NCBI GenBank assembly: GCA_016707895.1
Contig: JADJGV010000002.1
Location: 655,695 to 719,694, forward strand
Length of the DNA stretch: 64,000 nt
Direction of reading: 5' to 3'
From: Myxococcales bacterium
Lineage (GTDB): Bacteria; Myxococcota_A; Polyangia; Haliangiales; Haliangiaceae
Under the pieces are notes generated by a model. The model saw only the letters and a list, made by a program, of their open reading frames with translations. It was not told the DNA's origin and did no database searches. Made by a program: the position numbers and the translations under genes. How positions within the stretch are numbered: position 1 is the stretch's first letter; each line of letters starts with the position of its first letter. Shown one piece after another: positions 8,558-19,223 of the stretch.

Positions 8558-11500
8558 ATGAGCAGGGAACATCGCGATGAAGGCAAGGAAGCAGCACCGC
8601 CAGCGGCGAGCGTGGGCGCGAGCCCGACGCGCCGCGTGGACGCGCCTGTCGTGGACGCCGGCTACCAGGCTCAGTGCGACGCTCGCGTGCTCCAGTTTCT
8701 CAGCGCGCCGTTGCCGCTGACGCCGTCGGAGCGTGAGGCGCGCGAGGCTGGCGGTGATGCGAGCGGCGTGCACGCGGCCGCGGAGCGCGGTGTCTCGGGT
8801 GCTGCGACCGTGCTGCCGCACGGCGACACCATCCAGGCGGCCTTCGGCCCGCACGACATCTCTGGCGTGCGGGCCCACGTCGGCGGCGCCGCCGCCGACG
8901 CCTGCGGTGCGATGGGCGCGAGCGCCTACGCGACCGGCAACCAGGTCGCGTTCGCCGGCCAACCCGACCTGCACACGGCCGCTCACGAGGCCGCCCACGT
9001 CGTGCAGCAACGCCAGGGCGTCCAGCTGTATGGCGGCGTCGGCGAGGTCGGCGATGTCTACGAGCGGCAGGCGGATGTGGTGGCGGACGCGGTGGTGGCG
9101 GGCAAGTCGGCGGCGGGGCTCTTGGGGGCGCCGTCGGCGGAGGCTGTTTCAACGAAGTCAGTGCAGGCCTTCGGCGGGCTCTACATCGCAGGTGCGTCCC
9201 CAGCGGCGCAACCCGCCGCGAACGGCGGCGCGGCGCCGGCGTCGACCGCTGCGGTCACCGGTCCCAGCGTGAATCGGCTGGTGGCGACTGATCCGTCGGT
9301 CGAGTTCGGTCCGACGCCCGTCGGCGCGACGACGTACAAGCCGCTCACGTTCGTCAACCGGGGTGCCGAACCGGTGGAACCCAGCGACTTCGTCGTCCGT
9401 CCGGGTGTCAACGCTCAAGAGGACGACTTCAGCGTCGCCGGCGGCGACGCGACGAGCGGCGCCGCGCTCGCGCCGGGCGAAGCGATCTCGCTCCAGGTCG
9501 CGTTTCATCCGCACCCGCGTCCTGACCAGGATCCCAAGCGGTGGCCGGGGCGCGTCGCGCACATCGACGTGCTCGACCTCGCGGGCGCGCGGGCCGGTTC
9601 GGTCAAGGTGCGCGGGAAGCCGCGGCCGACCGATGAAGCGACGCAGGGGGCGCACGAGGCGGCAGAGTTGGTAGGTGCGAGCCGCAACCACGCCGACGTG
9701 GCGGCGCCGGTGTCGTACGCCGACATGCTCGCGAACCTGCGGGCCGCCCGTGAGCTGCTGTCGACCGGCGACCGTGATCACGCCCAGGCGCTGATCCACG
9801 CGGTGCGCGAGCGGATGGCCGGGACGCTACGCGAGGACAAGTCATGGCCGCGCCTGCGTGGGTTCGGCCTCGGCGCGCAGGCCGGCCTTCACCTGATCAA
9901 CGAAGCGTACGACGCGGTGGTGGCCGCCGACCGTGGCCTGGGTGCGGACTGGCGGGTCGACGGGGACAAGCTGGTGATGATGCTGGAAGCCGCGCGCGAG
10001 CCGATCCAGTTCGTCCTCAAAGAAACAAAGGACGCGCCGACGCTCCGCGCGTTCCACGACGCGTCGCCCGCGGTGATGGTGGGAAACGCGATCGAGGGGA
10101 TGGCCGAGCACACGATCGAGATGGTCACTGACGCCGAGTACACGGTCGGCTATCTCTCGGGCCTGGTCGAGGGCGCGTACGGCGCGGTCCGCGATCTCGT
10201 CATGGGCTTCGCCGACCTGGTCGGCATGACCGCCGACATCGTGAAGGCGATGTGGTCGCGCGGCTTCGTGGGCGCGGTCCAGCACTTCGGGCGCCAGGTC
10301 GCTGACATCTTCGACAAGGCGCCGGAGTTGCTCGAGGCGCTCGGTGCGGACTTCGCGCGCAAGTGGAACCAGCACGGCTCGTTCGACCGCGGGAACTTCC
10401 GCGGCGAGGTGATGGGCTACATCGCCATGCAGATCCTGCTCATCATCGCCACGGCCGGCGAGGGTGCCGCGGCCGCTGCGGGGCGGTGGCCGAAGGTGTT
10501 GCAGGTCATCCGCACGCTCGACGCCGCCGGCGACATCTTCACGTGGGCCGAGACGGCAGCCGACGGCGTCCGCGCGCTCCGCAAGGGCGCCAAGGCGGTC
10601 GGCAAGGCGGAGGACGCGGTCGACGCGGCCGGCAAGGGCGGGGGCAAGGTGCTGAAGATGGGCGGCGGCGGTGCGCCGGATGCGCCGTCGGCCGGCAAGG
10701 TCCCCGGTGGGCCGGAGGTCGACGCGCCGAAGGCGGGTGCGCCGCAGGCCGATGCGCCGCACGCCGATAGGCCGGCAAGCGCAGGCCCCGATGCTCCGCG
10801 CAAGGGCGGCCCGTACAAGGCCCCGGACGATCCGACGCGGGAGCCGCATCATCCCGTGCGCGCACTCGAGGATGACGAGCTCGCCAGCTCGAAGGACTTG
10901 CGCCCCGTTCAACGCGGACGAGACCTGGTCGCGGATGGCTCGCGCCCCGTTGGCAAGGTCCTGAAGACCCGAGCTGAAGGCGAAGCCATCCTCCAACTCC
11001 TCGCGCAAGGCGACCGAAACGCGCTCGCCGCACTCGACATCGTGGACATCCCGAAGAAGCTGAAAGTGACCGAGCGCGAGTGGGCGCTCGTGCAAACGCG
11101 CGATGGGTTTCTTGTGTACATCGGCGACGCGGCGAGGGTCGACTTGCCGGCGAATGTTCGCTCCGTAGCGCACAGCCATCCGACGCACAAGCAGGGAAAG
11201 CGCCTTGAGTTGGACGTCCCGGATGGAAAGGGCGGCGTAGCCTTCACGGATATCGTGAAAGATCCCCACAAGGCAGCGGACACGGGCCTTCTGCCGTCTG
11301 CCATGGATCTGCACGTCGTCTCCGATGGTACGGAACACACGCTCCATACGCAGTTCGTGATGGACTGGGATGGTACGATCACCAACGCGGTAGAGGGGGA
11401 CACGCGGCCACGCGTACAAGTACGCATCAGCAAGTCGCGGGTTATTCGCTACAACGAAGGCCGGAAAGGCTACTGGTATCAAGCGCAGTTGGACGTCAGC

Positions 11501-11632
11501 GCTGGCGGGCAGGCCATCTGGAGCGGCGACTTCTTCGGCCGAAGGTCCTTCATTGCCGCCGACGATCAGGTGAAGTTTCATCGTTTCCCGGAGCTGGAGT
11601 ACCCGCCGTCAGCGGACCAAGTCGATCCATGA
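8558..11632 (+). CDS. Large multidomain polymorphic-toxin-like protein, copy 1: N-terminal DUF4157 HExxH zincin-like domain, Ig-like (ASH/choice-of-anchor-D-like) domain, hydrophobic central domain, DAP-rich linker, conserved C-terminal domain of unknown function
   Basis: 1024 aa. N-terminus ([28 protein letters not shown] ... [16 protein letters not shown]) matches the DUF4157 pattern including HExxH. About 75% identical to the 15235-18342 paralog over the N- and C-terminal domains. 3' third is lower GC than the 5' part. Confidence 0.8.
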
Positions 11633-12519
11633 GTTGCTTCACCTATCCTGAGTTCTACACATGCTGTGACGGGCGGTTTCTCGTTCGCCGTCGTTTGATT
11701 CTGGGCACGGGGATCTACGACGGAATCCGGACTAGCGATCAGCGGCCTCTTCTCGTTACCAGCGTTCAGCCCCATCGACTCGATAGCTTGATCGATGCGA
11801 TCACGTATGAGGTACCAGGCACGACCAAGCTCCTGGGGGTTACACAGATCGATCTCGGCTCGTGGCAGCCGCAGCCAGGCGATGACCTTGACGATCCGTG
11901 CATCGACACAAAGGAGGACCTCCCTGAAGGATTCGTGCTGGTCGTCGAGACGCGGCCGGTTGGGCGGTCCCTTCGCATCCTGGGCCCAGGCGGGCCGCTG
12001 GGCGCTGTCGGTATCGGGCACGGGCTCCTTCTGACCGCGAGCGCCGCCGCACAAGCGGACGTGTTCCTCGAAGGGATCCGACCCGAGACCGTGTATGCGG
12101 ACGGCGACCTGTACAGCGGATGTCATGCACGCCTATGGCGCGTCGAGATGAGCCCACGGCGGCAAGCCGAGTTCCGTGGAGCCTTCGAACCCGGCGGCTT
12201 CTTTGCGCCGGAGATCCTGTGCTCTGAACCACCGACGCCGACCAGCGATGCGTTTGCGGCGGCGGCGGTACTCTGGTGGTTCGCCACTGGCAGCGATCCG
12301 TTCGGTGGTGCGAACGTGGACTTCACCCAGCGAATCGTCGACGGCCAGCTCGAGCCGTTCCAAGGACCTCCCGAACTCGGCGAGGTCCTGGTGCCGATGC
12401 TGGCGCGCGATCCCGCGGCCCGGCCGTCGGCGGCCGAGTCGGCGGATCGCCTCGCGGCGCTGGCCTGTCGCTGGGATGTGCCCATCGCGCCGTTTCCGCC
12501 GCCCGGGCTCGATCAGTGA
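11629..12519 (+). CDS. Pseudokinase-like partner protein (putative immunity/antidote) of toxin-like copy 1
   Basis: ATGA start/stop overlap with the upstream gene. Kinase-fold landmarks are present in order (Gly-loop [13 protein letters not shown]-like FAPEIL, subdomain [21 protein letters not shown], subdomain [12 protein letters not shown]). The beta3 Lys, HRD Asp and DFG are replaced (RPLLVT, GIRPE, YSG). Paralog of 18339-19223. Confidence 0.7.
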
Positions 12520-18200: not shown

Positions 18201-18342
18201 CGTCAGCGCGAGCGGCCAGTCGATCTGGAGCGGCGATCTCTACGGGCAACGCGGGTTCCAGACCGACACCGACAAGGTCTCGTTCAAGCGCTTCGGTGAG
18301 CTGGATCGTCCACCCCCGGTGAGCTACGTCGATCCGCCATGA
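15235..18342 (+). CDS. Large multidomain polymorphic-toxin-like protein, copy 2: DUF4157 HExxH domain, SH3b-like plus LysM-like insert, hydrophobic central domain, DAP/HxDKP linker, conserved C-terminal domain
   Basis: Start reset to [12 protein letters not shown] by alignment with copy 1 ([12 protein letters not shown]). [12 protein letters not shown] motif. LysM-like [17 protein letters not shown] and SH3b-like [18 protein letters not shown] present. C-terminal about 230 aa are roughly 75% identical to copy 1 ([22 protein letters not shown]...). Confidence 0.8.
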
Positions 18343-19223
18343 GCCTCGTCACCTACCCCGAGTACTACACGTGTGGCGAGGGCCGGTTCCTGGTCCGCCG
18401 GCGGTTGATCGTCGGCACCAGCATCTATGACGGCGTCCGGCTGAGCGACGCGCGACCGTTGCTGATCACGCACGTGCAGCCGCGCGACCTCGACCGACTG
18501 GTCGCGGCGATCACCTACGACGTCCCAGGGACGACGAAGCTCCTGGCGGTCACGCAGGTCGACCCCGGCTCGTGGCAGCCGCAGCCCGGTGATGACCCGG
18601 ACGATCCGTGCGTCGACACCGCGGAGGACTTGACCGAGGGCTTCGTGCTCGTCGTCGAGACGCGGCCGCGCGGGACGCCGATCCGCGCGATCGGTCCCGG
18701 CCCGGCGCCGCGGGCCGTCGCGGTCGGTGCCGGCCTGTTGCAGACGGTCGCGGCCAGCGTCGAGCGCGGCGTGTTCCTCGAGGGGATCCGCCCCGAGACC
18801 GTCTACGCGGATGGTCACGCCTACGCGGGCTGCCATGCCCGCCTGTGGCGCATCGAGATGAGCCCGTCGCGCCAGGGCGAGTTCGGTGGTGCCTTCGAGC
18901 CCGGCGGCTTCTTCGCGCCGGAGATCCTGTGGTCGGATCCTCCGACGGCGACCAGCGACGCCTTCGCGGCGGCGGCGGTGCTGTGGTGGTTCGCGACCGG
19001 CGGCGATCCTTTCGGCGGACCTGACTTCCATCAGCGCACGATCGACGGCCAGCTCGAGTCGTTCCCTGGCCCGCCCGAGCTGGGCGAGATCCTGGCGCCG
19101 ATGCTGGCCCGCGACCCCGCGGCCCGGCCGACGGCGGCGGAGTCGGCCGATCGGCTCGCGGCGCTGGCCCGCCGCTGGGACATCCCGGTGGCGCCGTTCC
19201 CGCCGCCGGGGCTCGACGAGTAG
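18339..19223 (+). CDS. Pseudokinase-like partner protein (putative immunity/antidote) of toxin-like copy 2
   Basis: ATGA overlap with the upstream gene. 294 aa. Paralog of 11629-12519 with the same degenerate kinase motifs. Higher GC than copy 1. Confidence 0.7.
   Translation: MSLVTYPEYYTCGEGRFLVRRRLIVGTSIYDGVRLSDARPLLITHVQPRDLDRLVAAITYDVPGTTKLLAVTQVDPGSWQPQPGDDPDDPCVDTAEDLTEGFVLVVETRPRGTPIRAIGPGPAPRAVAVGAGLLQTVAASVERGVFLEGIRPETVYADGHAYAGCHARLWRIEMSPSRQGEFGGAFEPGGFFAPEILWSDPPTATSDAFAAAAVLWWFATGGDPFGGPDFHQRTIDGQLESFPGPPELGEILAPMLARDPAARPTAAESADRLAALARRWDIPVAPFPPPGLDE

Follow-up and report, generated by a model that had tools for sequence, protein, structure and literature searches.

The question raised by this locus is what two large proteins of about 1,030 residues, each encoded directly ahead of a smaller partner of about 295 residues, are for. 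They lie in a 64-kb stretch of GC-rich DNA (70-78% GC) with myxobacterial relatives, which was analysed whole and is referred to here as the window. Polymorphic toxins of contractile injection systems (CISs) that are headed by a DUF4157 domain and followed by a cognate gene are already known, and the original prediction had seen in the window the layout of a polymorphic toxin-immunity system. The reading that we favour, by a modest lean, is that the large proteins (T1 and T2) are CIS-delivered toxins bearing a JAMM-like warhead, and that the partners (P1 and P2) are pseudokinases acting as their immunity proteins.

The four genes stand on the forward strand exactly where the original prediction had placed them, as established from the open reading frames (ORFs) and their translations. 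In pair 1, the CIS-cargo-type protein T1 (1024 residues) is encoded at 8558-11632 and its pseudokinase partner P1 (296 residues) at 11629-12519, and in pair 2, T2 (1035 residues) and P2 (294 residues) are encoded at 15235-18342 and 18339-19223. Both junctions read ccATGAg, so that the predicted 4-nt overlap of stop and start codons is present in each pair. A second possible ATG for T2 lies upstream at 15196, but the start at 15235 is preferred because the orthologues and T1 both begin with M(T/S)xxxRDEGKE. The nearest public loci come from Myxococcales metagenome-assembled genomes (MAGs), and the ratio of non-synonymous to synonymous substitution (dN/dS) against orthologues lies between 0.1 and 0.3 in all parts of T1, P1, T2 and P2, with values of 0.08-0.17 for T1 against its orthologue in lineage L009. 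This purifying selection on every part, taken with the codon statistics, indicates that all four genes are functional. Promoter and terminator scans of the window (72% GC DNA) were uninformative.

The N-terminal parts of both large proteins carry the DUF4157-type HExxH domain that had been proposed for them. The Pfam model PF13699 (eCIS_core, formerly DUF4157 or 'PVC-metallopeptidase') matches T1 at 47.2 bits (E = 2.5e-12; residues 92-154, positions 8831-9019) and T2 at 33.2 bits (E = 5.9e-08; residues 118-171, positions 15586-15747), in both cases above its gathering cut-off of 22 bits, and the zincin motif is intact as HEAAH in each (residues 143-147 of T1; residue 160 of T2). DUF4157 is a hallmark of CIS cargo and toxins, usually standing at the N-terminus ahead of a long linker and a C-terminal toxin (PMC8213781; PMC3482391; bioRxiv 10.1101/2021.10.19.465003), and it is highly CIS-specific (PMC8213781). 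In AlgoCIS, cargo loading is carried out by the AAA+ protein Alg15, with the disordered N-terminus before DUF4157 serving as the signal. By likeness to that system, the N-terminal region of T1 (8558-8830), which is rich in alanine, proline, glycine and charged residues, is a candidate loading signal, its disorder and that of the T2 N-terminus being judged by a composition proxy alone. A segment that reads YQAQCDARV(L/V)QF(L/M)S.PLP(L/Q)TPSERE is near-invariant in T1, T2 and three related loci (L001, L002 and L004).

Beyond this point the two proteins differ greatly, and the identity of about 75% that the original prediction gave for both the N-terminal and the C-terminal domain holds for the C-terminal one only. 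Across the last ~226 residues, which form the C-terminal domain (CTD), T1 and T2 are indeed 75% identical, whereas their first ~200 residues are 55% identical by BLAST (60-64% in 50-residue windows over residues 1-150). Residues 200-520 are unrelated, in keeping with the variable middle that had been described; identity is ~35% in the helical region (residues 519-700) and 70-86% from the linker onward. The middle of T1 contains an immunoglobulin-like domain (residues ~232-318, positions 9251-9511; weak ASH/HYDIN match, E = 9e-4; NCBIfam choice-of-anchor D, E = 8e-5) which T2 does not have, and T2 shows a weak LysM-like stretch and, by eye, an SH3b-like stretch. The helical region of T1 (10112-10657) has by hydropathy a single hydrophobic, transmembrane-like segment (residues 616-641) and is 33-43% identical in distant relatives. 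Its counterpart in T2 (16870-17379) likewise has a hydrophobic segment (residues 642-668), and T2 alone gives a weak match to a PHROG tail tape-measure family (residues 544-621, E = 0.0046). Linkers with 15-nt tandem repeats follow in both proteins, encoding five residues rich in proline, aspartate and alanine in T1 (10711-10774) and being of the HVDKP type in T2 (17408-17481). The repeats are of HVDKP or DAPxA type, and the orthologues of T2 in L001, L002 and L004 have linkers that differ from its own in both length and sequence.

We then consider the CTD (residues 794-1024 of T1, positions 10937-11629; residues 804-1035 of T2, positions 17644-18339), which had been described as carrying a conserved block, SVAH(S/T)HPTH...[11 protein letters not shown], and as belonging to no known toxin family. 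The block is present in both CTDs, and the domain has no match in Pfam, NCBIfam, PADLOC or PHROG and falls in no listed toxin family. Against the models for JAB, Prok-JAB, RadC and toxin JAB domains, nothing was found at E <= 1 (Pfam) or 0.1 (NCBIfam), and in searches of the full CTD against the PDB, phmmer returned nothing and a profile search gave only chance-level matches to a lysine hydroxylase and a cystatin. An exhaustive HMMER profile search of 1.84 billion cluster representatives nevertheless recovered 91 relatives, 52 of them at E < 1e-10. Over 34 CTD sequences, down to 25% identity, a glutamate, a glycine and the motifs HxHP and PSxxD are invariant, corresponding in T1 to E841, H872, H874, P875, P913, S914 and D917; the matching metal-site positions of T2 are E851, H882, H884, S924 and D927. 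This constellation, E...HxH...S..D, matches the zinc site of the JAMM/MPN+ metalloproteases, although the spacing is non-canonical, with the HxH and SxxD halves parted by an insert of 30-45 residues where ~7-10 residues are usual.

The AlphaFold model of the CTD, built on the alignment of this family, is a very confident one (predicted local distance difference test score, pLDDT, 95.5; predicted template modelling score, pTM, 0.91); in it, a strand ends at HxH and a helix begins at SxxD. Foldseek, which the original prediction had proposed running on both the CTD and the partner, found no significant match to the CTD model in the PDB (best E = 0.2). When the insert was deleted from the profile, just eight PDB sequences were matched, among them two entries for AfJAMM (E = 0.3) and BRCC36 (E = 1.1), aligned on HsHP..PSxxD and not matched before the deletion. 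Three weak but independent lines (the motif, the model and the insert-deleted profile) therefore converge, and on these sequence and modelling grounds the CTD is probably a very divergent JAB/JAMM-like, Zn-dependent hydrolase with large elaborations. We read it as a new clade outside every modelled family.

The family is almost always found at the C-terminus of its carriers, which range from 567 to 4699 residues, or internally in carriers of up to 4699 residues, and in seven of the 11 full-length proteins scanned eCIS_core was present with no other Pfam domain. In a set of distant and larger relatives (P0049-P0053, P0064, P0065 and P0092), the JAMM-like domain is internal and 300-1500 residues follow it; the tails of P0052 and P0053 contain IDIVDG...HEIKSG, which by eye resembles a PD-(D/E)xK nuclease and has no Pfam match. 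The internal position prompts the alternative that the JAMM-like domain is instead a self-processing (releasing) or maturation peptidase, with toxicity arising from the membrane-inserting, tape-measure-like helical region. The hydrophobic segment in each toxin, the weak tape-measure match, the precedent of Tme and Sle1 (PMC11126660, PMC13277306) and the frequency of releasing peptidases in polymorphic toxins (PMC3482391) all speak for this. Yet nothing follows the domain in T1, T2 or any close relative, so there would be nothing to release; DUF4157 already provides a putative processing peptidase, and the dedicated partner co-diverges with the CTD rather than with the helical region. We regard this explanation as unlikely.

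A word-indexed search of 5.8 billion proteins, with either the CTD or the 34-sequence profile as query, returned fragments only (P0001, P0021 and P0111), and absence from this search does not equate to rarity, since full-length CTD homologues are encoded on related MAG contigs and are present in the 50%-cluster library. In the genome-collection scan the family was found in one species only, that of the L001 MAG, whilst two divergent CTDs found nothing on plasmids by tblastn and a scan of viral contigs was likewise empty.

The partners are 76% identical to each other (E = 3e-150), and are thus paralogous, as had been claimed. Their sequences match only the C-lobe of kinases, and weakly (Pkinase, E = 1e-3; MLKL, IRE1 and VEGFR in the PDB), but the AlphaFold model (pTM 0.81) is superposed by Foldseek on whole kinase domains, including c-Met, Abl, RIPK1 and PknA, with E values of ~5e-10 to ~1e-9 and template modelling (TM) scores of 0.6-0.66. 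The catalytic positions, read by eye from the family alignment against the canonical motifs, have been lost throughout. The β3 lysine of VAIK is replaced by threonine (T44, in LLVT), HRDxKPxN has become (E/A)G(I/V)RPET, with glycine (G149) for the catalytic aspartate and threonine (T154) for the asparagine, and DFG has become H166-A167-R168, whilst APE is kept. T44, T154 and R168 are invariant in the partner family and G149, H166 and A167 nearly so (at least 90%), a 33%-identical partner (P0014) having the variants LAAIRPE and TPR. A kinase fold together with the loss of all four catalytic residues identifies the partner, on its sequence and model, as a conserved pseudokinase, which bears out the label in the original prediction. 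Hydropathy analysis revealed no hydrophobic signal or transmembrane segment, and the partner family is small, with 13 members in 5.8 billion proteins. The window also offers an internal contrast on the reverse strand at 45223-46656, where a Ser/Thr kinase is encoded that looks canonical by eye (VALK, HRDFKPDN, DFG and APE) and has a membrane or tetratricopeptide repeat-like part at its C-terminus.

Wherever genomic context exists, the partner is found behind the CTD-bearing gene. In five of five distant loci from a metagenome scan (L015-L019), a CTD that is 38-44% identical to that of T1 is directly followed by a partner that is 27-35% identical to P1, and the pairwise identities of CTD and partner are closely correlated (r = 0.97 over 12 pairs and 0.98 over 45 comparisons), whereas those of the helical region and partner are less so (r = 0.67). 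DNA homology between the two pairs is confined to 10567-12512 in pair 1, which is the linker, CTD and partner, and it follows that a cassette of these three has been placed on two different bodies; the same CTD is carried by T1-type and by T2-type bodies, as expected of modular exchange. The linker, CTD and partner may thus form a unit that recombines onto different protein bodies, of which the window would hold two old copies on two bodies. The tight coupling that had been likened to polymorphic toxin-immunity systems is therefore seen as a co-inherited and co-varying cassette. The wider likeness stands in part: an N-terminal trafficking domain, a C-terminal module and a coupled partner are all there, but within this one genome the usual pattern is reversed, with the warhead and partner conserved and the body differing. 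In one of the distant loci (L015, positions 7862-11679 of a 79-kb metagenome contig), the T2-type middle, helical region, CTD and partner are kept and DUF4157 is absent, and no AAA+ ATPase or CIS gene was found within 10 kb.

Such coupling might also be expected if the pseudokinase were not an antidote, and were instead an adaptor, chaperone or activating cofactor that keeps the CTD loadable or active, in the manner of type VI secretion system effector chaperones or of the MPN- partners that activate eukaryotic JAMM enzymes. We consider this the main rival, a real if minor possibility. Against it, the partner tracks the CTD rather than the regions that a chaperone would shield, namely the N-terminal loading region and the hydrophobic helical one; the downstream, overlapping gene order is the usual one for toxin and immunity protein; and there is no fusion of CTD and partner among the 91 CTD-family proteins.

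Turning to delivery, the gene 55 nt downstream of P2 (19278-21275, forward strand) encodes a CIS-type AAA+ ATPase with a winged-helix domain, a degenerate D1 and an AAA D2 (PF22977, PF00004). It is 41% identical over 424 residues to an ATPase of the same length inside a CIS cluster on a Streptomyces plasmid, where the gene order is DUF4255, ATPase, sheath, tube, VgrG, PAAR and baseplate. The nearest annotated homologues, which are on plasmids, sit in CIS clusters, and on a Nostoc plasmid baseplate and tail genes are followed by those for a DUF4157 protein, a hypothetical protein and the ATPase. Three related loci (L001, L002 and L004) have kept cargo, partner and ATPase together, and it is this adjoining ATPase that points to a CIS as the specific delivery route. 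A search of the window and of the L001, L002 and L004 flanks detected no CIS gene for sheath, tube, baseplate or spike, and the locus is, at least locally, a cargo-loading module that stands apart from any structural cluster.

An AAA+ ATPase, a kinase-like protein and a protease could also make up a non-secreted intracellular conflict or anti-phage module, and generic PADLOC matches to IetA ATPases and to mad6 and PD-T4-6 kinases are the only support for this. These matches span generic AAA and kinase C-lobe parts and fall far below the family thresholds, T1 and T2 match no defence model, and both the CIS setting of the nearest annotated ATPase homologues and the CIS specificity of DUF4157 argue the other way. 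Identity with a defence system was rejected given how generic the matches are, and we judge the wider idea of an intracellular module to be very improbable.

Taken together with what is known from characterised systems, the CIS-toxin reading suggests the following course of events. The conserved, low-complexity N-terminus and DUF4157 would mark T1 and T2 for loading by the adjacent ATPase, which is of the Afp15/Pvc15 type and would load them into a CIS encoded elsewhere. The helical region with its hydrophobic segment may aid passage across a membrane, and the C-terminal ~230 residues, with the predicted site E841, H872, H874, S914 and D917 (T1 numbering), would then act as a toxic hydrolase in the target cell. 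In the producer, the translationally coupled cytoplasmic pseudokinase is proposed to bind and neutralise its cognate CTD. Several observations weigh against this reading. The 64-kb window is without any CIS sheath, tube or baseplate gene, and L015 keeps the CTD and partner but lacks DUF4157 and has no ATPase close by. In many larger relatives the CTD lies internally and further domains come after it, which fits a processing peptidase as well as a toxin. An immunity protein of 295 residues with a kinase fold is unusually large and we found no precedent for one in the literature, and the partner has no signature of diversifying selection.

If the partner is indeed an inhibitor, a kinase fold invites a more speculative idea, namely that it is a target mimic or decoy which evolved from the target itself. 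The warhead would then attack eukaryote-like Ser/Thr kinases, or a conjugate on them, in prey or rival cells, again from a unit of cargo and ATPase that is encoded apart from its machine. We consider this doubtful, though if it is true the toxin activity would be new and the immunity family the first with a kinase fold.

Comparison with known systems helps to define what is new here. DUF4157 polymorphic and extracellular CIS-associated toxins (Zhang et al. 2012, PMC3482391; Geller et al. 2021, PMC8213781) share with T1 and T2 the N-terminal HExxH domain, long linker, C-terminal effector and association with a CIS AAA+ ATPase, and some of them are linked to antitoxins (PMC3482391; PMC8213781). 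They differ in that the CTD of T1 and T2 falls outside the listed toxin families, the partner has a kinase fold and there are no CIS structural genes in 64 kb. Tme of Streptomyces davawensis (PMC11126660) and effectors of the Tme/Sle1 type (PMC13277306) have in common with them an N-terminal DUF4157, a helical or hydrophobic region remotely similar to tape-measure proteins and an enzymatic domain at the C-terminus. However, Tme is ~2,250 residues long, with several transmembrane helices and an EndA-like nuclease, and is encoded just upstream of baseplate genes, a position that neither T1 nor T2 occupies; at ~1,030 residues these have a single hydrophobic segment, a JAMM-like end, a dedicated partner and a tape-measure match that is weak and confined to T2.

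The JAMM/MPN+ metalloproteases with which the CTD was compared include AfJAMM, PfJAMM1, Rpn11, BRCC36 and AMSH, and in bacteria Cap3 and BilC. A parallel in position is with the polymorphic-toxin JAB domains described in 2012, Tox-JAB-1 and Tox-JAB-2, which place the JAB superfamily in the toxin position beside immunity genes, as is proposed for the CTD. Those domains are proposed to be divergent from JABs that cleave ubiquitin-like proteins, and are suggested to be nucleases rather than peptidases (PMC3482391), so that either activity may apply to the CTD. They ride on RHS or other carriers, and their immunity proteins have a fold that differs from that of the partner here. The partner resembles MLKL, whose pseudokinase domains are its best sequence matches in the PDB, and the atypical kinase-fold proteins SidJ and SelO in having a bilobal kinase fold without the canonical catalytic residues; its genomic role beside a secreted-toxin domain is without precedent in the literature that we found. 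We likewise found no publication that describes the CTD family, the kinase-fold partner or the detached cargo-ATPase layout, or that joins 'pseudokinase' and 'contractile injection', which agrees with the claim that the combination was undescribed.

The two pairs also have different histories. Related MAGs have a single pair, with which pair 2 is syntenic in the order PhoD, toxin, partner and ATPase, and pair 1 has a lower GC content at third codon positions (GC3), at 0.84 and 0.73 compared with 0.96 and 0.92, the value for T1 standing against ~0.96 in the genes around it. In this, pair 1 resembles lineage L009 (66% GC), in which the CTD is 91% and the partner 87% identical to those of T1 and P1. 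Synonymous divergence (dS) between the pairs amounts to 1.26 in the CTD and 0.87 in the partner (0.9-1.3 overall), by which measure both pairs are old; a recent tandem duplication is ruled out by this divergence together with the differing protein bodies. The 98%-identical sister genome L002 is without pair 1, and retains at 4386-4422 a 37-nt scar equivalent to window positions 11146-11182, which encodes [10 protein letters not shown] of a T1-type CTD. This scar rules out a recent insertion of pair 1, and shows that the pair was deleted there rather than inserted here, so that pair 1 is, as judged from the two sequences, a presence/absence polymorphism due to deletion.

Between the pairs, 12560-15121 holds ORFs of low GC3 (0.65-0.79) with no family match. 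These comprise an ORF of ~157 residues (~12560-13033), a membrane-like protein of 208 residues (~13111-13737) and an ORF of 265 residues with a lipoprotein-like N-terminus (13734-14531), all on the forward strand, and a further ORF on the reverse strand (~14561-15121). Gene calls in L002 include all but the first of these four, and the ORF with the lipoprotein-like N-terminus recurs upstream of the toxin in L004. Directly after the ATPase, 21279-21806 encodes a 175-residue DUF1579-like protein (E = 9e-5, below the gathering score), and a gene for 154 residues takes the same position in L001, L002 and L004; it may belong to the module. On the reverse strand, a DUF72 protein and a DNA-methylase-like protein (N6_N4_Mtase/UPF0020) with a 4-nt overlap are encoded at 22580-24957, a pair that is kept in the related MAG loci, and a 526-residue ORF at 38647-40230 matches only positions ~41-300 of the 1021-position AcrB/AcrD/AcrF model and may be a truncated or very divergent fragment of a resistance-nodulation-division (RND) transporter.

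DUF4157 proteins represent the main unexplored reservoir of payloads for CISs, which are themselves being engineered for protein delivery. Within this reservoir the CTD is a confidently modelled warhead that matches no known structure or Pfam family significantly; its invariant residues point to a zinc hydrolase and make it a candidate peptidase, isopeptidase or nuclease. The kinase-fold partner, if it is an immunity protein, would represent a new class and a clean natural case of a pseudokinase serving purely as a binder or inhibitor. A compact unit of cargo, partner and ATPase outside a structural cluster also bears on how cargo and machine are matched. For the myxobacteria themselves, the presence or absence of pair 1 between genomes that are 98% identical suggests that the pair plays a role in strain-level competition.

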